This document shows positions 36,214 to 50,230 of a DNA stretch of 64,000 nucleotides, piece by piece. Position numbers and translations under genes: made by a program. The notes under the pieces were generated by a model. It was not told the origin of the DNA and made no database searches. It worked only from the letters and a program-made list of their open reading frames with translations. Position 1 is the stretch's first letter, and every line of letters begins with the position of its first letter. The DNA is taken from positions 3,018-67,017 of the forward strand of contig DATJRH010000031.1 in assembly GCA_035504945.1 (NCBI GenBank). The letters are read 5' to 3'. The stretch is from Candidatus Aquilonibacter sp. (GTDB lineage: Bacteria > Verrucomicrobiota > Verrucomicrobiia > Limisphaerales > UBA11358).

Positions 36214-36642
36214 TTAAGAAGGCAAATCCTTACCGGTCGTTGTTACTGTCAATTTGCCGTGTTTCACGCCTTTGGCCGAAATCAAGGCGTCCGCGATTTT
36301 GCGGATCAACGCCGCCTTGCCGCGCACGAGCAGCACTTCCAGACAATTGTGATGGTCAAGATGAACATGCACTGTCGAGAGAATCACGTCATGGTGATCA
36401 TGCTGGATGTCCGTAAGCGCGGCTTGAAGGTGGGGTTTGTGATGGTCATAAACCAGCGTGATGGTGCCGACGATGTCTTCATTGCCAAATTTTTGCCGGT
36501 GTTCGACGAGGCGGTCGCGAATCATATCGGCGATGGCCAACGAACGATTATCGTAGCCCTTCTCGCCCGACATTTCATCCAGTTGCCGCAACAGCGACGG
36601 CGGCAGGGACACGCTGAAACGGCTGACGGTTTCTTTATTCAT
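36214..36642 (-). CDS. nikR: Nickel-responsive transcriptional regulator NikR
   Basis: RFSVSL ribbon-helix-helix, NRS.AI.D.IR, YDHH, QH, HVHLDHHNCLEV Ni ligands. Start ATG 36642. Confidence 0.95.
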   Translation of the reverse strand: MNKETVSRFSVSLPPSLLRQLDEMSGEKGYDNRSLAIADMIRDRLVEHRQKFGNEDIVGTITLVYDHHKPHLQAALTDIQHDHHDVILSTVHVHLDHHNCLEVLLVRGKAALIRKIADALISAKGVKHGKLTVTTTGKDLPS

Positions 36643-36660
36643 GGCAAATTCAATTGCCAC

Positions 36661-36746: not shown

Positions 36747-38987
36747 TCAAAATGTTGCGGTCAAGCCAACCCGCGCCTGAAGCGGTTCGACCGGATGGAA
36801 AACATCCTGGAATGTTGGCGTGGCCGTTGGCGTAACGCGCGAGACATAGGCATAATCAATGTCGTGGTCGTGACGGTCAAGCAGGTTCAAAACCTCGACA
36901 GAAATGCGCCATGTTTTGTTGATTTGGTAGCCAGCTTCGGCATTTACCAAAATCGTTTGGTCGGAGCGATAAATTCCGTCCGAGGTCAAATCGCGCGGGC
37001 CGAAATAGCGCAGCCGGAGACTTGACGAAAAGCCATGCCAATCATGCAGCGTAATGCCGGAGGCAATCACCAACCCGACCGCTTCGGGCACATGCGTGCC
37101 GCCGGGACTGCCCGGTGCGGCATCATCGGCGTCCACCGATGTAAATCGGGCGATGGAATCCGCCATGTCAAAATCAAACGCCAGATGCTTTGTCAGCATA
37201 TAGTAATTTGCCCATTCGATGCCATAACGGTTGCTCGGCGATTTTGAAGGAACAGTGCCGCCAGTGTCGCCGTCCTGTTGCAATTCGGATTCGCTGTAAA
37301 GATACCAGAGCGAAACGGTGCTTTGCAGATGTGGCAGGACCAACGTGCGAACACCAACTTCCGCGCCTTTGGTCTGGATCAACGCGGGGATTTTCGCAGA
37401 CGGCGTTCCTGGATAAGGATTGTCCGCCGAAACTGGTTCCTCGGTTTGTGTCGCGCCGCGACCGTCGTTGCTGTGAAAGCCAAAACCGCCTTGCACATAA
37501 AACTCCGTTTTAGCCCACGGGCCGAAAATCAAGCTCAACTTGGGGCTGGGCAGCAGACTGTAAGCGGTGCCGGAGTTGGCCGGATTGTTAAGACAGGTGA
37601 CATCAAAATAGTCCAGGTCGCCGCGTAAGGCCGCGACGGAGCGGAATTTATCCCCCCACTGAACCTGATTCTGCACATAAAGACCAACTTGCGTATCCGT
37701 AAAATCATCGGCTTCTGTTGTGGCGGGCAAGATGGTGCCGGTTGCCGAATCCAGTTTCTCCACGCGCACGCGGTCTTCCGTTTGGTAAAGGCCGTTGTCA
37801 ATCCAGTCATTACGAACTTGTAGGCCAATCGTGTTTTGAACATCGCGGTGAAACCATTCGTTGAACAGGGTGTGACTTGCGTCAAGACCGGCCACCCAGC
37901 GATTGTCCTGCTGCTCAAATTGGTCGCCTTGGTTCGTGTCCGTGAGGAAATAAGTGAAATCGGAAAACAAGTCGAGGTAGTAATAAAATCCATAGGCCAT
38001 GACGTGCGTTTCAGAATTTTCATCCTGATGATGCCATTCAGCTTGCAGGCTGTAGCGTTGTGAATTGCCGCCGTCCGTTGGATTGATGGCACCGAAAAAA
38101 TTCGTTGCGCCGAAGCTGGCAGGGATTTGGTCGCTCGAATTCCATTTCCCATGATAACCAAGCGCCGTGACGCTGAATCCATTCACCTCATCGCCCTGGC
38201 TGTAGGTTAAAATGCCGTTGAATTTGGAATAGTCATCGGGATGCACCCAGGGACCGTCATCATGATACACTTCGCCGCCGTAAAGAATGTTGCCCGCGCC
38301 AAGTTTTTGCGACGCGCCAAACACGCCACGTTCAAAACCATACATGCCGCCTTGCACGGTAACGAAGTCCTGCGGTAGGGTCTGGTAAAACACGATATGG
38401 GCTGCACCCGCCGAACCAAAATCGCCCACATCCGCGTAGTAAGGACCTTTCTCGTAATCAATCCGCTCAACGAATTCAGGAATAACGATGTTCATGTCCG
38501 CGTAACCTTCGCCATGTGCGTGTGACGGCAGGTTCAATGGCATTCCATCAAGAAATATGGCGAAATCCGTGCCGTGATCCAGATTGAAGCCGCGCAGAAA
38601 ATACTGGTTGGCCTTTCCGCCGCCGGCGTGTTGTGTGATAATGACGCCCGGAACGGTTTCGAGAATCTCGCCGCTGCGCAAAATGGGGCGGTCGGCCAGT
38701 TGCGCCGCACCGGTCGTGCCCTGACTCGCGGAGGTGGCGATGCCGAGCAGGCTGTCCTGCCGGCCCACCACAGTGATGTCGGGCAAACGGACGACATGGT
38801 TGGTGTCAGCCGCTGGTTGGTTGGAAACCGTGTTGGCGGCGGTTTCGAGGTTGGTAAGGGTTTGGGCGCTGGCAATTCTGGCAGCGACAATTCCGCAGAA
38901 ACCAAAGGCCGCAACGCGAAGAATGGCTGTCCAAGCCCGGTGAAAAATCCGCGCTTGACCCGAATCTGAAATAAATGTTACGTTCAT
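36747..38987 (-). CDS. TonB-dependent receptor, probable nickel/metal uptake
   Basis: Plug ITQHAGGGKANQYFLRGFNLDHGTDF, HAHGEGY, KGPY; C-terminal Phe; between nikR and NiCoT. Start uncertain (ATG 38987 preferred to TTG 39044). Confidence 0.85.
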   Translation of the reverse strand: MNVTFISDSGQARIFHRAWTAILRVAAFGFCGIVAARIASAQTLTNLETAANTVSNQPAADTNHVVRLPDITVVGRQDSLLGIATSASQGTTGAAQLADRPILRSGEILETVPGVIITQHAGGGKANQYFLRGFNLDHGTDFAIFLDGMPLNLPSHAHGEGYADMNIVIPEFVERIDYEKGPYYADVGDFGSAGAAHIVFYQTLPQDFVTVQGGMYGFERGVFGASQKLGAGNILYGGEVYHDDGPWVHPDDYSKFNGILTYSQGDEVNGFSVTALGYHGKWNSSDQIPASFGATNFFGAINPTDGGNSQRYSLQAEWHHQDENSETHVMAYGFYYYLDLFSDFTYFLTDTNQGDQFEQQDNRWVAGLDASHTLFNEWFHRDVQNTIGLQVRNDWIDNGLYQTEDRVRVEKLDSATGTILPATTEADDFTDTQVGLYVQNQVQWGDKFRSVAALRGDLDYFDVTCLNNPANSGTAYSLLPSPKLSLIFGPWAKTEFYVQGGFGFHSNDGRGATQTEEPVSADNPYPGTPSAKIPALIQTKGAEVGVRTLVLPHLQSTVSLWYLYSESELQQDGDTGGTVPSKSPSNRYGIEWANYYMLTKHLAFDFDMADSIARFTSVDADDAAPGSPGGTHVPEAVGLVIASGITLHDWHGFSSSLRLRYFGPRDLTSDGIYRSDQTILVNAEAGYQINKTWRISVEVLNLLDRHDHDIDYAYVSRVTPTATPTFQDVFHPVEPLQARVGLTATF

Positions 38988-39044
38988 GTAAAATAGTATT
39001 ACCAATGCCTCAAGTGTTACGCAACATAAAAATAGTATTACCAA
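38975..39044. promoter_or_regulatory. Two tandem putative NikR operators
   Basis: 30-bp imperfect direct repeat with 39-bp period: ATGTTAC-N14-GTATTAC (38975-39002) and GTGTTAC-N14-GTATTAC (39014-39041). Confidence 0.7.
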
Positions 39045-39180: not shown

Positions 39181-40248
39181 ATGCAAATTGAAGGCGCGAC
39201 GGCAGCAATGAAATCTCCCGGCAACTTGAAGGGCCGGATTGTTGCCATGTATGCGCTGCTCATCGCGGCCAATGCCGGCGCATGGATTTGGGCGCTGGTT
39301 GCCTTTCATGATTATCCGATTCTGCTGGGCACGGCGCTGCTGGCCTACACATTCGGCCTGCGCCACGCGGTGGACGCCGACCACATCGCGGCGATTGACA
39401 ACGTGACGCGCAAGCTGATGCAGCAAGGCAAACGGCCGGTTGGCGTCGGCTTCTTTTTTTCCCTCGGCCATTCGACCATCGTGGTCGGTTTGTCGGTCGC
39501 CATCGCCCTGACTTCCGTGGCCATCAAGAATCGTTTCAATTTCTTCGAAGCCATCGGCGGAATCATTGGCACCGCCGTCTCCGCATTTTTTCTTCTCGCC
39601 ATCGCCGCCGCGAACCTCATCGTGCTCAAATCGGTCTTTCAAACTTTTCAACGCGTCAAAAGCGGCGGCCGGTTTGTGGACGAGGACCTCAACCTGATTC
39701 TCGCCCAGCGCGGATTTTTCGGACGCATTTTTCGGAATTTGTTCCGGCTGATTGAGCATGGCTGGCAGATGTATCCCATCGGCCTTCTGTTCGGCCTTGG
39801 CTTCGACACCGCAACCGAGGTCGGCCTGCTCGGCATCTCGGCAGCGGAAGCGACCAAAGGTCTTCCGATCTGGTCCATCCTCGTTTTTCCGGCGCTGTTC
39901 ACGGCGGGCATGGCGCTGGTGGATTCGACCGACAACATCCTGATGCTCGGCGCCTACGGCTGGGCTTTCGTGAAACCAATCCGCAAACTTTATTACAACA
40001 TGACCATCACCTTTGTTTCAGTCGTGGTGGCGCTGCTGATTGGCGGAATCGAAGTGCTGGGACTGATTGGCGATCATCTCCAAACCCACGGCGCGCTTTG
40101 GGACATCATCGGCTACTTAAACAACAATTTCGGTGTCATCGGGTTCGTCATCATCGGCGTCTTCGCGGGAAGCTGGATTGTTTCGCTTCTCATTTACCGG
40201 ATGAACCGCTACGACGAAATCAAAGTGAACACCGATTCCGCCGCCTGA
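39181..40248 (+). CDS. High-affinity nickel/cobalt permease (NiCoT; HoxN/HupN/NixA family)
   Basis: GLRHAVDADHI signature, FFSLGHST, LGFDTATE; about 8 TM helices. Start may be 39208. Confidence 0.94.
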   Translation: MQIEGATAAMKSPGNLKGRIVAMYALLIAANAGAWIWALVAFHDYPILLGTALLAYTFGLRHAVDADHIAAIDNVTRKLMQQGKRPVGVGFFFSLGHSTIVVGLSVAIALTSVAIKNRFNFFEAIGGIIGTAVSAFFLLAIAAANLIVLKSVFQTFQRVKSGGRFVDEDLNLILAQRGFFGRIFRNLFRLIEHGWQMYPIGLLFGLGFDTATEVGLLGISAAEATKGLPIWSILVFPALFTAGMALVDSTDNILMLGAYGWAFVKPIRKLYYNMTITFVSVVVALLIGGIEVLGLIGDHLQTHGALWDIIGYLNNNFGVIGFVIIGVFAGSWIVSLLIYRMNRYDEIKVNTDSAA

Positions 40249-40254
40249 AATTTT

Positions 40255-41064
40255 TCAACCCGGACGCCGGTAACCTTGCAAATCCACCGTCACGTGCGCG
40301 TAGCCGATTTCCTTGAGCGCCGCCGCGACTTGTTCAGCCGTGCCATTGCCAAGAAATTTCGGCAATTCCGCCGGGCCAACTTCGATGCGGGCCAGCCACG
40401 TCGGATTTTTTCCCAATTCATGGTGTCGCACGCGCACGTCGTGGAAGCCAAGATCGCGCAAAACATTTTCTGCTGCCTCAACCATCCGCAACTTTTGCGG
40501 GCTGACGATTTCGCCCTGCGGAATGCGCGAGCTCAAGCAGGCCATCTGCGGCTTGTCCGCCGTCGGCAGGCCGAGTTGCGCCGACAATTCGCGGATTTCC
40601 GCCTTCGTCAAGCCAACCTCCTTCAACGGCGCGCGCACCTGAAATTCGCCCGCCGCTTTTGCGCCCGGACGAAAATCGCCGAGGTCGCTCGCGTTTTCAC
40701 CATAGGCAATCACCGAAAAATTTTCGGCCCTGGCGATGGCCGTGAGTTCCTCGAACAACTCGTGTTTGCAAAAATAACAGCGGTTGGCCGGGTTCGCGGT
40801 GTAGTCGGGATTTTCAAACTCCGCAGTCTTCACCACGCGGACGGGAAATTTGAATTGCTCCGCGAGCGCCAGTGCTTCCTTCAATTCGCGCCGCGGCAGA
40901 CTGGGTGAATCGGCGATGACGGCCAAAGTCCGTTTACCCAAAACATCATGCGCCACGCGGGCGAGAAACACCGAATCCACGCCGCCGGAATAGGCGACGA
41001 GACACGAACCGTAGCCGCGAATTTGTTCGCGCAGGCGGTCGAGTTTGTTGGCGACGTGCGTCAT
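40255..41064 (-). CDS. larE: NPN cofactor sulfur transferase LarE
   Basis: PP-loop AYSGGVDS, RCYFCK, D.RPG, ACLSSRIP, VRVRHH. Confidence 0.93.
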   Translation of the reverse strand: MTHVANKLDRLREQIRGYGSCLVAYSGGVDSVFLARVAHDVLGKRTLAVIADSPSLPRRELKEALALAEQFKFPVRVVKTAEFENPDYTANPANRCYFCKHELFEELTAIARAENFSVIAYGENASDLGDFRPGAKAAGEFQVRAPLKEVGLTKAEIRELSAQLGLPTADKPQMACLSSRIPQGEIVSPQKLRMVEAAENVLRDLGFHDVRVRHHELGKNPTWLARIEVGPAELPKFLGNGTAEQVAAALKEIGYAHVTVDLQGYRRPG

Positions 41065-42317
41065 GATTTCAATTGTTTTGCGTTTTTGATGGCCGCGTCG
41101 TAAATCTGTTTCAATGGAATTTTGTTCCGCTCCGCCAATTCCCGGCAGGATTCAAATTCCGGCGCGGCCTGAATCACTTTACCACCAAGCCGGCCAATTT
41201 TCACCGTGACTTTTCCGAACGGTGTTTTGACCTCGGCAAATTCCCGGCGCAATTTCCGCCGCTCGGCGATGGTCCGGCGCACGCCGAACGCCGTGGTCTC
41301 GTGCAAAATCATTTCGGAAAATTTGTCCGCAGCCGTTTCCGCGCACAAAACCGTCAGCAAAACTCCGGGACGATTTTTTTTCATCTGGATCGGCGTGTGA
41401 AAAACGTCCAACGCGCCGGCGGCGAGCGCGGTTTCGACAAAATGGCCGAGAATTTCGCCGACGCAATCGTCGAGGTTCGTTTCCAAAACTGCAATTCGAT
41501 CCGTTTCCCAATCCAAGCTTGCCGAGATTTTGGATTGCGCGCCCAGCACGGCGCGCAAAACATTCGGACGCGACTTGTTCTCGCGCGTGCCGAGGCCGAA
41601 GCCGATTTTTTCTGCCGTCAAATTCTCCATCGGGCCGAAGCTTTCGGCAAATTCCGCGAGCAGCGCCGCGCCGGTTGGCGTGATAAGTTCGTGCGGCTCG
41701 TCGCATTGCGTGACGCCGATGCCGCGCGCGCCGAGAATTGCCAGCGTCGCGGGCGCGGGAACGGGAAACCGCCCGTGTGCGCAGTCAATCCAGCCGGTGC
41801 CCTCGACGACGGGCGCGGCGAGCACGCGCGGTTTGCCGAGCAATTCCAGCGCGATGCAAGCGCCGACGATGTCCACTATGGAATCCACCGCGCCGACTTC
41901 GTGAAAATGGACTTCTTCCGGCGGCAGCCCGTGGATTTTTCCCTCGGCCTCGGCGATGCGATGGAAAACAGCAATGGATTTTTGTTTCACCCACGCCGAC
42001 AATTTGCTGCGCGAAATCAAATTTTTGATTTCGGAAAAATTCCGGTTGTCGTCGTGATGATGGTGATGTTCGTGGTGATGACCGTGATCGTGGTCGTGAT
42101 AGTGTCCGTGTTCATGCGCGTCCGCCAGATGAACGTCGAACTTGACGCCTTCGATGCCGGATTTTTGCCGGCGCGCAATGTGCAAATGAAAATCGTCCAG
42201 CTTCAATTTCGCCAGCTCGCGTTCGAGCTTTTCCTCGTCCACGCCCAAATCAATCAGCGCGCCGATGAACATGTCGCCGGCGATGCCGCTGAAAATGTCG
42301 AGGTAAAGCGTTTTCAT
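41061..42317 (-). CDS. larC: NPN cofactor nickel insertase LarC
   Basis: YLD.FSGIAGDM, His-rich tract, HFHEVGAVDSIVDI, PVPAPAT, TPTGAA, ETNLDD, MKKNRPG, PEFE. Confidence 0.95.
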   Translation of the reverse strand: MKTLYLDIFSGIAGDMFIGALIDLGVDEEKLERELAKLKLDDFHLHIARRQKSGIEGVKFDVHLADAHEHGHYHDHDHGHHHEHHHHHDDNRNFSEIKNLISRSKLSAWVKQKSIAVFHRIAEAEGKIHGLPPEEVHFHEVGAVDSIVDIVGACIALELLGKPRVLAAPVVEGTGWIDCAHGRFPVPAPATLAILGARGIGVTQCDEPHELITPTGAALLAEFAESFGPMENLTAEKIGFGLGTRENKSRPNVLRAVLGAQSKISASLDWETDRIAVLETNLDDCVGEILGHFVETALAAGALDVFHTPIQMKKNRPGVLLTVLCAETAADKFSEMILHETTAFGVRRTIAERRKLRREFAEVKTPFGKVTVKIGRLGGKVIQAAPEFESCRELAERNKIPLKQIYDAAIKNAKQLKS

Positions 42318-43069
42318 TTTTCGATGAGCGCATTTATCTGCGCCGCCGCGAATCCCGCGCCGAAGCCGTTGTCAATGTTGACGACCGTCACGCCGCTGCC
42401 GCAACTGTTCAACATGCCGAGCAGCGCGGCCACGCCGCCGAAGCTCGCGCCGTAACCGATGCTGGTCGGCACGGCAATGACCGGCTTGGAAACCAGGCCG
42501 GCGACGACGCTTGGCAGCGCGCCTTCCATGCCGGCGACGACGACGAGCACGTTCGCCTTTTGAATCGTTTCCAATTTGCCGAGCACCCGGTGCAAGCCGG
42601 ACACGCCGACATCGGCCACGCGCTCGACGCGATTGCCCATGATTTCCGCCGTCACCGCCGCTTCCTCGGCCACGGGCAAATCGCTCGTGCCGGCGCAAAT
42701 CACCACGATGACGCCGGGCCGTTTCGGCAGCGGCTTTTCCTCGATGGTGACGCAGTGCGCAAGTTCGTGATGGACGGCGCGCTTGAATTTTTTCCGCAAC
42801 TGCCGCGCCTGTTCCGGTGTGACACGGGTGACGAGAACGCGACCGTCGTGCTGGAGCAGATTGGCGGCGATTTTCAAAATCTGCGCGGAAGTTTTGCCTG
42901 CGCCGAAAATGACTTCGGGAAAACCCTTGCGCAGGGCGCGATGCGTGTCCACGCGCGCGAAGCCGAGGTCGGCGAACGGCGCGGCCTGGAAAGCGCGCAA
43001 CACTGCGTCGCGGCTGGTCTTTCCGGCGCGAAACTGGTCGAGCAATTTGGCGGCTTCGGTGGTTGTCAC
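42314..43069 (-). CDS. larB: NPN cofactor carboxylase/hydrolase LarB
   Basis: D.HR..RKGFPEV, AGTSDLPVAEEA, DVGVSGLHR, AGMEGAL, PTSIGYG, NIDNGFGA. Confidence 0.95.
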   Translation of the reverse strand: MTTTEAAKLLDQFRAGKTSRDAVLRAFQAAPFADLGFARVDTHRALRKGFPEVIFGAGKTSAQILKIAANLLQHDGRVLVTRVTPEQARQLRKKFKRAVHHELAHCVTIEEKPLPKRPGVIVVICAGTSDLPVAEEAAVTAEIMGNRVERVADVGVSGLHRVLGKLETIQKANVLVVVAGMEGALPSVVAGLVSKPVIAVPTSIGYGASFGGVAALLGMLNSCGSGVTVVNIDNGFGAGFAAAQINALIEK

Positions 43070-43133: not shown

Positions 43134-46100
43134 TTACTGCAACTGAAGCCGGAAGAACAACTGGGAATTGGTGGCCGGCAGATTGGTGCAACTGAAATTG
43201 CCGCCGGCATCGAAGCAGTTGCTTGAAACAATCGTCCAATTGCTCAACGGCAAAGTGAGGTCGGTCGAGCACAAAACATAGTAATTCCAATTGGCGACGC
43301 CGTTGCTGCCGCAGAAATTAAGACTGTTTCCGTTCATCGTCAACCCGGCGAAGACCGGCGGCGGTGTTGGCGAGGCGACGACGCTCAACGAGCCGCTGCT
43401 CAAGGTGCTTGTGTCCCATGCGAGGTTGAGTCCCGGAATCGCCGGAATGATGTTTGTGAACGCGCCCGAATAGCCGGCGGCATTGAACAGCTTGAAGCTG
43501 TCGCCAGCGGCATACGAGCCGCCGAGATTGGTGATGACCAGCGTGCCGCCGTAAGTCACTGTGCCGGTGACCTGCGCGAAGTCGCTCTTCAATTGCGATT
43601 TGCTGATTCCCATCCGCGTGACGCTGCCGCCGTTCAACGTGAGATTGTTATTGAAAGTCATCGTCGTCAACGCGCCGCCCGGCGCGAGTGTCGCGCCGTT
43701 GCCGACAACAACATTTCCGCTGACCGTGCCGTTGCCGGTCAGGCTCTGGCCGTTGGCCAAAGTCAGCGTGCTGTCGATACGCGCGCTCGTGTCCAAGGTT
43801 GTGCCGGAGGCAACGGTGATTAACGGACTGTTCGCGAAGGCACCGTTGCCGCTCAAGGCCAGTCGTCCGGCGTTGATGGTCGTGTTGCCAGTGTAAGTGT
43901 TCACGGCGGTGAGGGTGGCTGTGCCGGAACCGTTCTGCATCAAAACGCCGTTGCCGGAAATGATTCCCGACAAAGTCTGCGCCGCAGAACTGCCGAAGTT
44001 GAAAATGCCGTTGTTGGTGATGTTGCCCGCATAAGAGCCATTGCCCAATTTCCCAGCGCCGCCAATTGTCAACGTGCCGCCGGTGATGATGGTGTTGCCG
44101 GTATAAGTGCTGGTTGCGGTAAGAACGTTGCTTCCGCGGCTTACCAGCAGAATGCCAGAGCCGCTGATGGCGTTGGCGACAGTGGCGCCCTGGCCGCCGG
44201 CGAAACTCAAAGCGGCGTTGTTGGTCACGTTCCCCGTGCCCAGCGGCGAGGTCCATGCGCTGGTGTCGTTGGCCGCACCCACTTGAAGCACGCCATTGCT
44301 GACGAGCGTGCCGCCAGTGTAGGTGTTGTTATTGTCCAAGGCCATGACGCCGTTGCCGGTTTTGATAATTCCCGTGTCGCCTTCGGAGGTGCCGTGAATC
44401 AAAGAGCCATAGACGATCAAATCAACACCGCCGGCCGTGCCGCCGTTGGTCACATTGAAAATGGTCCCGCCGGTTTCGCTCGGATCCGGCCAGCAATTGG
44501 TGATAACGGAGGTGATGGGCGCCGGCGGATTTCCGACGGCGAGGCCGCCGTCCAAATCCCAGGTGCCGTATTTGGTGTCATTCTGGTAATTGCCGTTCAT
44601 CGTCAGTGTGCCGCCGTTGAGCGTCAGCAGGCCGCGAAGATGGCTGTTGGAGCCGTTGCCAGTGTCGGCTGAAGCCGGGCCGGTCAATGTGCCGCCGGCG
44701 TTGATGGTCACTGGCAAGGTGTTGGCGGCACCGGAACCGCTCAAGGCGTTGTCAATGTTGATTTGAACAACAGCATTGGAATTGATGGTCAGCCGGCTGC
44801 TCTGATAAATGCCACTATTTGCGCTGTTGGCTCCGCCCAAGGCAAGCGTGCCGGAGTTAACGATGGTCGGGCCGGTAAATGTTTCGGCATTGCTCAAGGT
44901 CAACGTGCCGGGACCGTTTTGAACCAAAGTGCCGGAACCGGAAATAACCGCGTAATTTGTCTGCGACGTCGAAGTGCTGTAATTCAGCGTGCCGTTGTTG
45001 AGGATGGTCGCGACGGCGGTGCTCTGATCGTAACTTGCGCCGTCCAATTGTCCCGCACCGCCAATCGTCAGCGCGCCGCTGTTGTTGAGGTTGCCGGTAA
45101 ATGTGTTCGCGCCATTCAAATTGACCGCGCCGTTAAATGTCAGCGTCGCGCTGCCGGGGCCGGAAATGGCTCCCGACAGCGTGAGCGGGTTGGCAGAATT
45201 GTTGGCGACGGTAAGATTGGTCGTTACGGAAACCGGCGCGCTTATCGTATCGCCGGTGCTCGAAGAAAGTTGCGTCAGCGTGGCTGAATTGGTGCCGTTG
45301 AAGGTGAGCGAACCGCCGTTGGCGGCGAGGGTGTAAGCAGCCAGCCCGTTGGCGTCGCCGATTTGCAACGCGCCAATGGTGATGGGCTGGTTCAAATTGA
45401 TGGTCTGCGGCGCTGCGAGTCCGGCGTGGATGATTGCCAGTTCGCTGCTGGTGTTCGGAAACACGGTGGCGTTGGTCCAGTTGGCGTTGACGTTCCAGCT
45501 TTGCGGGCCAGAAGTAATGGTGTTATTCCAGTAAGCGGTCACAGGCGCACCCGAAACGACGAGTGATACCGTCGCGGTGTTGGTCTGGTTTCCGTCAACA
45601 CCGCTGATGAGCAGCGGATAGGTGCCCGGCGGCGTGTTGATAGAGGTGGTGATGTTCAAGGTCGAATTGCCGGAATTGCTCAACGATGGCGGAACAAAAA
45701 CGCCGTTCGCGCCGGAAGGCAGGCCGCTAACGGTAAGAGTCACGCTGCCGGTGAAGGCGCTGTTGGTCGTAACTGTGGCCGTGAAGTTTGTGGCGTTGCC
45801 TTGAATCACGATTTGCGATGATGGGCTGGCGGTGACGAGAAAGCCGCCATTCATGACGCTGATGTTCACGGCAGTGGAGGTGGCCGTGTAATTGTTCGTG
45901 TCGGTGGCCACGGCGGTCAGTGCCCAATTGCCGGCGGGCACGTTGCTCCAAGTCACGCGGTAAGGGCTGTTGCTGCTGGTGCCGAGGCAAGTGCTCGCGT
46001 TGGCATAGAAGTCCACCCGGCTGATTTGACTGTTCGTTGAGCCGGCGGCGGCTTGCAAAGTGATATTTGTGCCGGCAGGGAAAACGGAGCCGTCCGCCGG

Positions 46101-47732
46101 ATTGGTGAGGGCGACGGAAATGTCCACCGGCGCAATGGTGTATAATTCGATGCCGGTGCCGGTGCCAAGATTTCGCGAGTATTGTTTGTTGGTTGAATTG
46201 TTCCAATGTTCCCAAACGCCGAGGCTGGAGATCGGTGTTCCATCAGGTTCATAAACCGTGCCGGAATAACTTGCCCAGGAAGGCCAAGTGTTGGTGTTGG
46301 CCAAGGCCGCTTCTTCCAGGTAATTGTCGCAATTATAGCTGTCGCCACCGCCGAGGCTGGTGCCAAATTCGCTGGTCAAGAAATCTACGCCGACTGAATC
46401 AATGGCCACCGGGTCGAACGACATGAAATAACTCGACGACCACTGGCCGTTGAAGAGATTATTCCAAGCCGCGTTCGATGCCGTGACGGTGTCGTTCGCG
46501 TTTTTTGTGCCGAACAACCCGTCAATCATGAACAAAATAGTTTTGCCGCCGAGTTGTTTCGTGCCGATGAGGTCCACGAGCGGGGAATAGCGGCCCATGG
46601 TGTATTTGTAGTCGCTCAGGTAGGTGTTGTGGTCGCGGCCATTGACGCTGCCGTAATGATTTTTGGCCGTCAGTGTGACACCGCCGTTCGGATGGCCTTT
46701 CATCAAGGACATATTAACGATGTAGGTGGAATTAATCACCTGTTGGGGGATGTTGGTGCCGCCGCTGCCCGCTTCGGTGTTGACAGCGGAATATTGGAAC
46801 CCGCTGGGCACCCAAACCACTTTTTGGCAAATACCGTTCGTGCCAGCGTTGTCCATCCAAATCACGCTTGGAAATTGCGACTGGCAATAGGTGATGATGT
46901 GATTGGGAAGGTAACGAACGGCTTCATAGACCATGATTTTGTTTTGCGGCACGCCCGCTTGATTGACCAGTTCGTTGAGCATCGCCAGAACGGATTGGGG
47001 ATCGGCGTCAATTTGATTCAAATTGGTTTCGCCGGTGTTCCCGCCGTAGGCGTTGTTGCAATTGATTTTCAGGGCAATGGATTCGCCAGTCTGGTAGCCG
47101 ACGTTGCCGCGACCGTGAGTGTTGTTGTAATAATGGAAAATCAAATCCCACGCCTGGCTGTCATTGGTCCCGCCGGTCAGCGCCTGCAACGAACGCGACA
47201 TCATGCTTTCCACCACCGACTGATTGATGTTGGTCGCGTCCCAATAATGGTGGCCGTTGGCGGAAGAAGTGCCATCCCACGGCGTCGCATTGGTGTCGCG
47301 TATCCATGTGACGCGACCGGGGAAAATTCCTCTGGCCACGCCCAGCGGCGAATTGGCCGGCGGCGGGGAATAAGGCGGATTGGCTGCCATCGCACGCCAA
47401 ACCCAGGTTAGCAAAACCAACGCCATCAAAATTCCCGATCCCGTAAAGACGAGACGCCGACGTTTTTTCCACCACGCGCCCAGCCATGCCGCCAGACTGG
47501 CTTTCAAACCCAAGAGCCAGATGATGCACGTGGACGCCATCGGAAACGCCGCCTGTTGACAGGGATAGGTGGCGCGAATGGGTTTGGGAATGACGCGCAC
47601 GAAGAACCACGCCACGGACATCGCGCCCATCACCTGAACTACGAACCGGAACCAGCGCAACCGAAGGCGGGATTGTTCACACGACTGGCCGTTGGCAGTC
47701 CAATCGTGCCAGAACTTGAAGAAGGTTTTCAT
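43134..47732 (-). CDS. 1532-aa exported protein: DUF362 domain, Ig-like domains, autotransporter-associated beta-strand repeats, C-terminal domain
   Basis: RVIPKP.RA.YPCQ N-terminal motif with TM helices; GIFPGRV.W, IALKIN.NN, MKGH..GGVTLTAKNHYG, DPVAIDSV; Ig-like (VALTNPADGSVF...LTAVATD); repeated G.GTLTL...NT(Y/F)TG; C-terminal STDL..P..NW...FFRL. Confidence 0.85.
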   Translation of the reverse strand: MKTFFKFWHDWTANGQSCEQSRLRLRWFRFVVQVMGAMSVAWFFVRVIPKPIRATYPCQQAAFPMASTCIIWLLGLKASLAAWLGAWWKKRRRLVFTGSGILMALVLLTWVWRAMAANPPYSPPPANSPLGVARGIFPGRVTWIRDTNATPWDGTSSANGHHYWDATNINQSVVESMMSRSLQALTGGTNDSQAWDLIFHYYNNTHGRGNVGYQTGESIALKINCNNAYGGNTGETNLNQIDADPQSVLAMLNELVNQAGVPQNKIMVYEAVRYLPNHIITYCQSQFPSVIWMDNAGTNGICQKVVWVPSGFQYSAVNTEAGSGGTNIPQQVINSTYIVNMSLMKGHPNGGVTLTAKNHYGSVNGRDHNTYLSDYKYTMGRYSPLVDLIGTKQLGGKTILFMIDGLFGTKNANDTVTASNAAWNNLFNGQWSSSYFMSFDPVAIDSVGVDFLTSEFGTSLGGGDSYNCDNYLEEAALANTNTWPSWASYSGTVYEPDGTPISSLGVWEHWNNSTNKQYSRNLGTGTGIELYTIAPVDISVALTNPADGSVFPAGTNITLQAAAGSTNSQISRVDFYANASTCLGTSSNSPYRVTWSNVPAGNWALTAVATDTNNYTATSTAVNISVMNGGFLVTASPSSQIVIQGNATNFTATVTTNSAFTGSVTLTVSGLPSGANGVFVPPSLSNSGNSTLNITTSINTPPGTYPLLISGVDGNQTNTATVSLVVSGAPVTAYWNNTITSGPQSWNVNANWTNATVFPNTSSELAIIHAGLAAPQTINLNQPITIGALQIGDANGLAAYTLAANGGSLTFNGTNSATLTQLSSSTGDTISAPVSVTTNLTVANNSANPLTLSGAISGPGSATLTFNGAVNLNGANTFTGNLNNSGALTIGGAGQLDGASYDQSTAVATILNNGTLNYSTSTSQTNYAVISGSGTLVQNGPGTLTLSNAETFTGPTIVNSGTLALGGANSANSGIYQSSRLTINSNAVVQINIDNALSGSGAANTLPVTINAGGTLTGPASADTGNGSNSHLRGLLTLNGGTLTMNGNYQNDTKYGTWDLDGGLAVGNPPAPITSVITNCWPDPSETGGTIFNVTNGGTAGGVDLIVYGSLIHGTSEGDTGIIKTGNGVMALDNNNTYTGGTLVSNGVLQVGAANDTSAWTSPLGTGNVTNNAALSFAGGQGATVANAISGSGILLVSRGSNVLTATSTYTGNTIITGGTLTIGGAGKLGNGSYAGNITNNGIFNFGSSAAQTLSGIISGNGVLMQNGSGTATLTAVNTYTGNTTINAGRLALSGNGAFANSPLITVASGTTLDTSARIDSTLTLANGQSLTGNGTVSGNVVVGNGATLAPGGALTTMTFNNNLTLNGGSVTRMGISKSQLKSDFAQVTGTVTYGGTLVITNLGGSYAAGDSFKLFNAAGYSGAFTNIIPAIPGLNLAWDTSTLSSGSLSVVASPTPPPVFAGLTMNGNSLNFCGSNGVANWNYYVLCSTDLTLPLSNWTIVSSNCFDAGGNFSCTNLPATNSQLFFRLQLQ

Positions 47733-48273
47733 AAGTTACCTGTCCGCGGCATTGCAACCGGCGCAAATTTCAGACACTTCCAGACACAAATACAAAACCA
47801 CACGGTCTCGTAGGAATTTAACGTCTCCACAACAATGACGCTTCCACTTGATTGCCAAAAACTAACCGTAAATTGTCATTTCTGGAGAAGCCCAACCGGC
47901 AAGATTTGGAAAAACGAGTTCAGGACTTTTTGAAATTTTAATGATGTCACAGTTTTAACAGCATCAGGCCACGCTTCTTTTCATGCACCGCGAATAATTC
48001 AATGCCCTTGCCCCTGCGGTTCATATTGCGGCTATATTGTTTGTCGATCGCGTGGGTTCCAATGTTCGTGGACGCCGCCGCCGCTGTTGGTCAGAAATGT
48101 GCCGAACTCGGAATGCAGAAAATCGCAACCAACCGAATCAATCGTCAACTGATCCCGCGGCTTGAAAGAACCGACAACCATTGGCCGCCAAAATGATTTT
48201 TCCAGCCCGCGAACCCTGCGATCGCCGGGTCGTTTGCGTCGCGTACGACATATAGTTTTGCGGTTTGCCCAAA

Positions 48274-48732
48274 TTATTTCGCATCCGGCGTGATGCCTTC
48301 CAATTCCAATTTCAGCGCGTGCAGGGAAAGGTTGATATCGCAGATGAAGGCGACAAGCGACGCAAACAGTGAAGCCATGCAGCCGATAAAGAGCAGCCCG
48401 ATCAAAATTCCCTCTTGCGATTGCAGCAACGCGGTTACAAACAAAGTTATGATCAGCACCGCCGCCAGCGACGCGCTCGTGGCCGCCAAAATGATGCTGA
48501 AGCGGATGATTTTTGCACGGCGATACAGCATCGCCACCTGCGCGAGCGTTTGCGCGCGTTCATGACCGGCGCGGTCGGAGAGATCGCGCTTCAATAGCCG
48601 CGCACGGTCAATGGCCCGCCCCAGCCGGTTGGTCATGGTGAGCAACAGCAGCCCAACGCCGGAAATCAAAATTACCGGGCCGATGGCCTCCTGAAGTTCC
48701 GGGATGATTCGTTCAAGCGAGATCGTTGGCAC
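48274..48732 (-). CDS. DUF2721-like membrane protein
   Basis: AIGPVILISGVGLLLLTMTNRLGRAIDRAR pattern; 3 TM helices. Confidence 0.8.
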   Translation of the reverse strand: MPTISLERIIPELQEAIGPVILISGVGLLLLTMTNRLGRAIDRARLLKRDLSDRAGHERAQTLAQVAMLYRRAKIIRFSIILAATSASLAAVLIITLFVTALLQSQEGILIGLLFIGCMASLFASLVAFICDINLSLHALKLELEGITPDAK

Positions 48733-49041: not shown

Positions 49042-49344
49042 ATGACAAAATTACCGAAAATATGTTTGGTGGTTTCAGCAGTGACGTTTGTGATTGGATC
49101 CGCCATGTGGTTTGGCTGCATCAGCGTTGCGCCGGCATGGACGGTGGTGATGCCGATCAGCGCCATCATGTTTGGCCTTTTTCTGATCACGTTCGTGCTG
49201 GAAAAGGAAATGACCGGCTTCGACGCCGACGAAGCGAAGAAAACAAAATGGATTGAACGCAATACCACCATGCTCGCACCAGCATGGAAACCGGCGCTGG
49301 CACCGGTCCAACTCAAAGAAAAAATATTTCCGCATGATTGCTGA
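49042..49344 (+). CDS. Small two-TM hypothetical protein
   Basis: Two hydrophobic helices; GGAG upstream; overlaps the start of the radical SAM gene. Confidence 0.55.
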   Translation: MTKLPKICLVVSAVTFVIGSAMWFGCISVAPAWTVVMPISAIMFGLFLITFVLEKEMTGFDADEAKKTKWIERNTTMLAPAWKPALAPVQLKEKIFPHDC

Positions 49345-50230
49345 ACTGGCTCCAGTTTCTTGCTCCGCAGACAAGACCGTCCCGGATTTTCCCGGCTCGG
49401 CGTTTGGTCATCCGCGTCAGTTTTTAGGCAACCGCTTCGTCTACACGGTCGTGTCGCCGCGCGCGCGCGGCTTGTCCATCGGCGTGAACATGAACCCGGA
49501 CCGGCGCTGCAATTTCAACTGCGAGTATTGCGAAGTGGATCGCGCCACGCCCGCGCCGGAAACGTCGCTGGACGTGGAAGTGATGGCGGACGAATTGCAG
49601 CGCACGTTGTGGCTGGCCTGCTCCGGCGAGCTGCGAAATTTTCTTGGCTACCGCAACATACCTCCTGACTTGCTCGAACTGCGGCAGGTGGCGTTGAGCG
49701 GCGATGGCGAGCCGACGCTTTGCCCGAATTTTCTCGATGCGGTCCGCGCGGTCATCCACGCCCGCGCGTTGGGACGGTTTCCCTTTTTCAAAATCGTGCT
49801 GTTGACCAACGCGACGGGGCTGGATTCGCAGCCGGTGCAGGACGGATTGAAATTGTTCACGCAGGAGGATGAAATCTGGGCCAAGCTCGAAGCCGGAACG
49901 CAGTATCACATGAACCGCGTGAACCGCGCAAATTGTTCGCTGGAAAAAATTCTGGCGAATATTCTTTTGATCGCCCGGCAACGGCCGGTGGTTATTCAAA
50001 GCCTTTTTCCGCTGGTGAGTCCCGGGGAGCAGTCCGTCGAGGAAATTGAAGAATACGCGCGACGGCTGAATGAACTGAAACAGGCGGGGGCGCAAATTCC
50101 GCTGGTTCAAATTTATTCCGCCGCCCGCCCGACGGCGCATCCCCAATGCGGGCATTTGCCGTTGAAGGCGCTCGCGCACATCGCCCAGCGCATGCGCGAA
50201 ATCAGCGGACTGAAGGCGGAAGTTTTTTAA
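49334..50230 (+). CDS. Radical SAM protein (COG0731-like)
   Basis: CNFNCEYC (CxxxCxxC), VY.VVS.RARGLSIGVN, SGDGEPT. Start ATG 49334. Confidence 0.85.
   Translation: MIAELAPVSCSADKTVPDFPGSAFGHPRQFLGNRFVYTVVSPRARGLSIGVNMNPDRRCNFNCEYCEVDRATPAPETSLDVEVMADELQRTLWLACSGELRNFLGYRNIPPDLLELRQVALSGDGEPTLCPNFLDAVRAVIHARALGRFPFFKIVLLTNATGLDSQPVQDGLKLFTQEDEIWAKLEAGTQYHMNRVNRANCSLEKILANILLIARQRPVVIQSLFPLVSPGEQSVEEIEEYARRLNELKQAGAQIPLVQIYSAARPTAHPQCGHLPLKALAHIAQRMREISGLKAEVF

Follow-up and report, generated by a model that had tools for sequence, protein, structure and literature searches.

The gene and its surroundings

The window, by which we mean the whole stretch of 64,000 nucleotides that was analysed, contains on its minus strand an open reading frame (positions 43134-47732) coding for a protein of 1,532 residues. 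According to the ORF and its Pfam matches, this protein consists of a membrane leader, a DUF362 domain with a predicted LarA-like fold, an Ig domain and a repeat stalk. The leader begins with a helical hairpin (residues 18-87; 47472-47681), which was delimited by alignment and modelling and matches no Pfam family. It is followed by a basic stretch and a hydrophobic helix (residues 92-115; 47388-47459), which appear signal-peptide-like as judged from hydropathy and the modelled helix. The DUF362 subfamily domain comprises residues 117-533 (46134-47384), as deduced from Pfam, homologues and the structural model. The match to Pfam family DUF362 (PF04015) itself spans residues 245-450 with an E-value of 2.5e-9 and 37.9 bits, compared to a gathering cut-off of 24, and 98-99% of the Atlas neighbours of the domain belong to PF04015. 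Residues 145-457 (46362-47300) can be superposed by means of VIA-align on the N-terminal, cofactor-binding domain of LarA. The remaining residues 458-533 (46134-46361) form a C-terminal extension with the invariant residues E508-H509-W510; it was delimited by conservation, lies beyond the superposition and stands in place of the C-domain of LarA. The Big_7 Ig domain (residues 539-607; 45912-46118; Pfam E 7e-12) leads into an Asn/Thr/Gly-rich stalk (43137-45911), in which Pfam detects three passenger-associated (PATR) repeats. All these features are encoded on the minus strand.

The gene larB (42314-43069, minus strand; NF033503 above cut-off) starts 64 bp downstream of the DUF362 gene and is followed on the same strand by larC for the nickel insertase (41061-42317; profile match above the NCBIfam cut-off) and larE for the sulfur transferase (40255-41064; TIGR00268 above cut-off). 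Beyond these genes, profile matches identified a NiCoT nickel/cobalt permease (39181-40248, plus strand) and the nickel-responsive regulator NikR (36214-36660, minus strand). Between them, Pfam places a TonB-dependent receptor (36747-39044, minus strand) that, given its context, is likely to serve nickel uptake. No terminator-like site was found between the DUF362 gene and larB in a promoter and terminator scan that performed at chance level overall.

The adjacency of the DUF362 gene to larBCE is a one-off. None of 80 related subfamily loci contained a homologue of larB, larC, larE or LarA nearby (0/80; flanks of at most 10 kb, shorter on many contigs). In five of five close relatives (G618 apparently being the same genome as G006), larB and larC lie together, as in the present genome, but away from the subfamily gene. 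A conserved operon with larBCE is therefore ruled out. A second candidate explanation, according to which an orphan larBCE set depends on the DUF362 protein, is likewise ruled out by a LarA-type putative hexonate epimerase (NF052594) encoded in the same genome (G000, C17; L002, positions 763-2058). Its gene lies between a KDG-kinase-like gene and a gene for a D-mannonate oxidoreductase.

Just upstream of the DUF362 gene, a decayed remnant of the C-terminal part of a second subfamily member was detected (47971-48255, minus strand; best tblastn E 3e-16), which is disrupted by a frameshift and deletions. In the relatives G611 and G618, three and two intact subfamily members, respectively, lie close together. 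Further upstream are genes for a DUF2721 membrane protein (48274-48732, minus strand) and a radical SAM protein (49253-50230, plus strand), and beyond those cNMP-binding-like, AraC-like, two-component and cydAB-like ORFs, which were named from the appearance of their sequences alone.

A near-invariant His-Lys-His motif

The initial annotation had drawn attention to a His and a Lys spaced as in LarA, with a further His 11 residues after the Lys and no ferredoxin-type Cys motif in the domain. These observations were borne out. The segment MKGHPNGGVTLTAKNHYGSVNGRDH (minus strand, 46703-46629, within ORF 43134-47732) contains K345, H347, K357 and H368 in full-length numbering; the distance is 10 residues from H347 to K357 and 11 residues from K357 to H368. 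There is no CxxC anywhere in the 1,532 residues, and none of the stored subfamily homologues contains a CxxCxxCxxxC motif.

The spacing alone proves little, because H-x9-K was reproduced in 19% of 20,000 shuffles of the domain; when a third His 10-20 residues further on was included, the value was 3.8% of 20,000 shuffles. The motif is judged to be real because it is near-invariant among homologues. In 121 close homologues, H347 and K357 are each kept in 121 and H368 in 120 sequences. A diverse set was assembled from 143 sequences, each standing for a cluster at 50% identity (142 new matches plus the present domain), 140 of which have the full domain. In these 140, H347 is found 138 times, K357 140 times and H368 139 times. 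The same 140 domains contain K222 in 140, N224 in 139, an acidic residue at position 270 in 139 and H509 in 138 cases. The distance between Lys and the following His is 11 in the present protein, 16 in LarA and mostly 11-25 over the subfamily; the length of the loop thus varies, yet the His stays. The subfamily is large, with 1,140 clusters at 50% identity (E up to 1e-30).

The present copy departs from its relatives at three columns where most of them keep a His (Q284, E473 and W507). These departures and the adhesin-like stalk would suit a non-catalytic module that binds a sugar or a cofactor on a surface adhesin. We consider such a role very improbable, since stand-alone forms of about 440 residues are common in the subfamily and since, in model and alignment, the invariant polar residues are located at the ends of core strands, a placement typical of enzymes.

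The predicted fold and its relation to LarA

Residues 117-533 were modelled with AlphaFold2 (pLDDT 93.8, pTM 0.94). A Foldseek search with this model returned members of the LarA family in all of the top 11 rows, none of which reached an E-value of 0.001. In a comparison with 48,161 chains by VIA-align, only five chains had a Z-score of at least 8. All five belong to the LarA family (Z 12.7-14.2, rmsd 2.9-3.7, 207-222 aligned residues); the next-best chain had a Z-score of 5.3. On 5huq, the superposition (Z 12.7, rmsd 3.2, 214 aligned residues) is confined to residues 34-271, i.e. to the N-domain. The LarA-like fold anticipated by the initial annotation is thus recovered in the model for the N-domain only; the fold predicted for the DUF362 domain resembles this cofactor-binding part of LarA.

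Profile comparison gave a mixed result. H347 and K357 are in register with His174 and Lys184 of LarA, as had been proposed, but the direct matches were not significant (E 0.12 and 0.047), and the direct hhalign comparison was used for the register only. The LarA sequence used for this purpose is numbered identically to L. plantarum LarA. Canonical DUF362 proteins bridge the two sides in the same register, with a probability of 93.6 to the subfamily and an E-value of 4e-4 to LarA. Based on profile alignment and conservation, His347 (46692-46694) is a candidate base and Lys357 (46662-46664) a candidate thioamide tether. The equivalence of His368 (46629-46631), selected by column conservation, with the nickel ligand His200 is less direct: the hhalign match stops just short of this residue, the spacing is 11 instead of 16 residues, and we infer from the sequence that it may occupy the place of His200 in space.

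In LarA, R75, K184 and H200 bind the cofactor, while D72, H108, H174 and K298 are catalytic (PMC7583248). No clear match to D72 and R75 was seen in the profile alignments; the strand equivalent to this region ends with the invariant residues K222 and N224. There is no His after the strand equivalent to that of H108. Hhalign pairs H108 with a column occupied by His in 90% or more of the close relatives and by Gln284 here, in a register that is uncertain for the subfamily. Lys298 and the C-terminal substrate domain have no counterpart either, as the superposition stops at residue 271 of 5HUQ; past the LarA-like part, the protein runs into its own extension and the Ig domain. Furthermore, Lar_N (PF09861) did not match the protein at E 0.01, and searches of PDB sequences with the domain and with its profile found no relative and no LarA. 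With no clear match to D72 and R75 and no counterpart to H108, K298 and the C-domain, the reading as a lactate racemase is ruled out.

The homology to LarA holds nevertheless. With the LarA superfamily (PF09861, clan CL0471; 5HUQ, 6C1W, 9EIA, 7S91, 4NAR and 9Q3J) the domain shares the N-domain fold at Z-scores of 12-14, the residues equivalent to His174 and Lys184, a conserved His after the Lys and the co-occurrence with lar genes. It differs in that the sequence identity is only 9-13%, in lacking the C-domain, in possessing an export leader, an Ig domain and a stalk, and in the glycan-locus context seen on the side of the DUF362 subfamily. By this comparison, the protein would act in the manner of the half of LarA that binds the cofactor, yet it is no member of the LarA family. 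The relation between DUF362 and LarA as such is already known, since Pfam places DUF362 together with DUF2088 in clan CL0471 (PMC11770544); in the text available from that source, DUF362 serves as an outgroup and no claim about a cofactor is attached to it. With the canonical, ferredoxin-fused DUF362 proteins (PF04015), the subfamily has the motif K-x-H-x9-K-N-x2-G in common. In contrast to them, it has no Fe-S motif but a leader, the C-terminal EHW extension and extracytoplasmic modules, and the present protein scores only 38 bits in Pfam. All 26 canonical members that were aligned carry two [4Fe-4S] ferredoxin motifs, which are common but not obligatory in the family.

An enzyme that is exported, binds the nickel-pincer cofactor NPN and epimerises or racemises sugar acids, with the E508-H509-W510 extension providing a second acid/base, would agree with the predicted fold and cofactor residues shared with LarA. 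H509 is kept in 138 of 140 domains, the lactonase that is fused to some relatives could supply an aldonate, and the genome already uses a hexonate epimerase. Moreover, some LarA homologues have only one catalytic His (bioRxiv 2025.08.19.671153); the single-His enzymes described there in the available text lack H174, not H108. Against this stands that H108, D72 and K298, which are conserved in the characterised enzymes LarA, Mar2 and GntE2 according to the portion of PMC7583248 at hand, have no clear match here, and that the two [4Fe-4S] motifs of canonical DUF362 proteins point to net redox chemistry. We therefore regard an epimerase as improbable.

Probable export and glycan context

The leaders of 262 homologues were classified as hairpin (141), plain hydrophobic (57) or twin-arginine (23), with 41 unclassified or truncated; hairpin, Tat and plain leaders are interchangeable on the same domain. 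The loop of the hairpin contains the conserved residues W42-R46-P51-R53-Y56-P57-C58 (PxRxxYPC), and its helices were modelled with pLDDT values of 88-95. All 150 stored proteins that carry the motif have the Cys. An Atlas search with the leader retrieved only unnamed clusters, below 0.9. In the single-chain model of residues 1-533 the pTM is 0.82, compared to 0.94 for the domain alone. The present protein has KKRRRLVF before helix 3, which differs from the Tat consensus RR-x-F-L; tatC is present in the genome. Tails of subfamily members include dockerin, T9SS and Ig domains. Together with the leaders, these tails make it likely that the domain acts outside the cytoplasm, and from its sequence the present protein is likely to be exported and displayed on the surface. 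The predominance of non-Tat leaders suggests export in the unfolded state. Since most leaders are not of the Tat type, the protein would have to receive a cofactor either ahead of its export or once it is outside, and the loading of the exported protein is the hardest point for any reading that involves NPN.

Subfamily members frequently occur in the company of sugar-related modules. A fusion with an SMP-30/gluconolactonase domain was found in 16 of 72 subfamily locus ORFs; these 16 come from Planctomycetota and are related to each other. Domains of the types CBM6/9/32/35/96, PA14, malectin or glycosidase occur in 16 of 52 representatives that were chosen for their length, and a ferredoxin in none of these 52. 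Fusions of DUF362 with CBM9 and dockerin have been noted before (PMC5742341). At five loci from four carriers of the same genus, the neighbours code for GH2/43/28/9, GH39/88, GH5/27/78 or an acetylesterase; one member from this genus carries a GH28-like domain as a fusion, and one has the same layout of Ig domain and PATR repeats as the present protein. No sugar genes were found beside the present copy among the window ORFs scanned. At two further loci (L016 and L081) the fusion partners of the subfamily domain are beta-helix, metallo-beta-lactamase-fold and laminin-G domains, and one protein (P0123) contains three DUF362 domains in tandem.

Co-occurrence with the genes for cofactor synthesis

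For DUF362 as a whole, 301 genomes of the phylum were sampled, after removal of four DUF362 matches above E 1e-4 and 23 Lar_N matches above E 1e-5. larC was found in 147 of 192 genomes with DUF362 (77%), compared to 97 of 128 genomes with LarA (76%). Among LarA-negative genomes, 62 of 85 with DUF362 contain larC versus 19 of 88 without it. In a comparison limited to seven selected families, the presence patterns of DUF362 and larC are identical in f6 (14/23, no Lar_N match) and f26 (10/15), and are broken in f31 (6/6 DUF362, no larC), f4 (14 larC, no DUF362) and also f5. In family f4, 14 of 21 genomes contain larC but neither DUF362 nor LarA, and another client of NPN probably exists there. 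Of the larC-negative genomes with DUF362, 41/47 also lack larB. Since related genomes are not independent of each other, p-values for such comparisons are overstated.

The 80 loci come from 79 genomes, of which 50, of unstated completeness, were analysed as subfamily carriers, with long loci being favoured. These 50 genomes contain larC in 28, larB in 41 and larE in 42 cases; at least two of the three genes are found in 43, and none in seven, which are MAGs. In the phylum sample, six of seven carriers have larC. Five of nine carriers labelled Bacteroidia contain larB, compared to one of 250 genomes sampled from the class of G020, which we take to be Bacteroidia and in which the subfamily itself was absent (0/250).

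A LarA-fold enzyme acting on glycans without any pincer, whose His-Lys-His motif and numerous conserved acidic residues bind a plain metal or the substrate, would also account for much of this pattern; the link to lar genes would then reflect ancestry and a shared lifestyle. Such an enzyme could explain the intact subfamily member in G239, a genome on one contig (100% complete) that has no larB, larC or larE, and the control B. thetaiotaomicron, which has a DUF362 protein and lacks larB/C/E. It is also consistent with the mostly non-Tat leaders, with the missing adjacency to lar genes at the 80 loci and with the lack of a clear match to D72, R75 and H108. What speaks against it is the invariant Lys at the position of the cofactor tether of LarA, together with the enrichment of larB in the Bacteroidia-labelled carriers. 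In addition, the absence of larC is a weak test, because larC is missing at a similar rate from genomes with a true LarA gene (31 of 128). We consider this explanation unlikely, though it deserves more weight than an epimerase. Among the genomes with LarA but no larC, several are at least 90% complete and encode LarA with E below 1e-66 (G069, G093, G111, G162, G183, G184, G206, G240 and G243; L114 and others); import of the cofactor or a lost biosynthesis is possible in these cases.

Fifteen of the 50 carriers, all from Planctomycetota, contain larB and larE but no larC (G012, G014, G019, G026, G027, G029, G034-G036, G039, G041, G043, G045, G046 and G049), one of them being a single contig of 7.5 Mb. 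The eight lactonase-fused members within the 50 genomes are kin and all belong to this larC-less group of Planctomycetota. A LarC2 model found nothing in five of five larC-less planctomycete genomes tested. No substitute for larC was recognised among the seven shared neighbours scanned beside larB and larE in 10 stretches from six genomes; these neighbours are TsaD, an NAD(P)HX dehydratase, an endonuclease, a symporter, MlaE and two proteins without a family. In six planctomycete stretches larB lies between tsaD and the NAD(P)HX dehydratase gene. The larC-less planctomycetes hint at a nickel insertase of a new kind or a nickel-free cofactor. Extended to the subfamily, this leads to the idea of a precursor or variant of the pincer that is independent of LarC, either a nickel-free dithio-pyridinium nucleotide or a cofactor that is loaded by another insertase. 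Because larC adjoins larB both here and in the close relatives, and because the operon of the present genome is flanked by genes for nickel uptake, we rate this idea as quite improbable, below the epimerase.

A candidate nickel-pincer enzyme acting on sugars

Taken together, the DUF362 protein is a candidate nickel-pincer enzyme for sugars outside the cell. For any use of NPN by the domain, we see the odds as somewhat better than even. For our preferred, more specific reading, an exported nickel-pincer enzyme that catalyses hydride transfer and acts on sugars, we estimate a probability of roughly 0.4. In its favour are the predicted fold, the register of H347 and K357, the conservation of the triad, the co-occurrence with lar genes and the sugar-related fusions and neighbours of relatives. 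Counting against it are the direct profile matches to LarA, which are not significant, the adjacency to larBCE, which is not conserved, the other client of the cofactor in the genome, the carriers and DUF362 genomes that lack lar genes, the scarcity of Tat leaders and the departure of the present copy at three His columns.

In the preferred mechanism, Lys357 would tether NPN as a thioamide, His368 would complete the nickel site, and the invariant Lys222 may take over the role of Arg75 at the phosphate. His347 would be the base that deprotonates a hydroxyl group of the sugar. The hydride would then leave the sugar one way, and no racemisation would occur: its return to the other face is unlikely because there is only one catalytic His and no C-domain as in LarA. 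The product would likely be an oxidised sugar, i.e. an aldonolactone or a keto-sugar, and a second substrate may take up the hydride, as it does in NphT. The fused lactonase of some relatives fits a lactone product.

A precedent for this type of chemistry is NphT, an NPN-dependent homologue of aldo-keto reductases, which according to the available text of PMC13524815 uses NPN to convert aldoses into lactones and alditols. There, NPN is covalently bound via a Lys, a His serves as a ligand, and the conversion of aldoses to lactones proceeds by intermolecular hydride transfer. The likeness is restricted to the proposed chemistry: NphT has a TIM-barrel fold unrelated to the DUF362 domain, and the activity is demonstrated for NphT, whereas it is proposed here.

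Implications for the family

The use of NPN by DUF362 proteins was not found as a proposal in the literature searched, which comprised journals readable without subscription. DUF362 or PF04015 does not appear in the main text and those supplements of PMC13524815 that were searched; the main SI and several tables of that study may list the family. That the subfamily as a whole represents a large family of cell-surface nickel-pincer enzymes, which oxidise sugars or the ends of glycans outside the cytoplasm, seems less likely than not; this generalisation is somewhat more doubtful than the reading of the present protein.

If true, this would be the first extracellular use of the NPN cofactor. A route for export or loading of the cofactor would then be needed, and the hairpin leader with its invariant Cys is a candidate part of it. 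The finding would also help to explain genomes that contain larBCE without larA. As described in PMC13524815, only 12 nickel enzymes are known, and many prokaryotes make NPN without having a LarA to use it; in our phylum sample, 62 of the 81 larC genomes without LarA encode a DUF362 protein. If the domain binds NPN, a common domain of unknown function would become the main missing client of this cofactor, and its secreted, ferredoxin-free branch would add a nickel-based redox activity to the breakdown of plant glycans.
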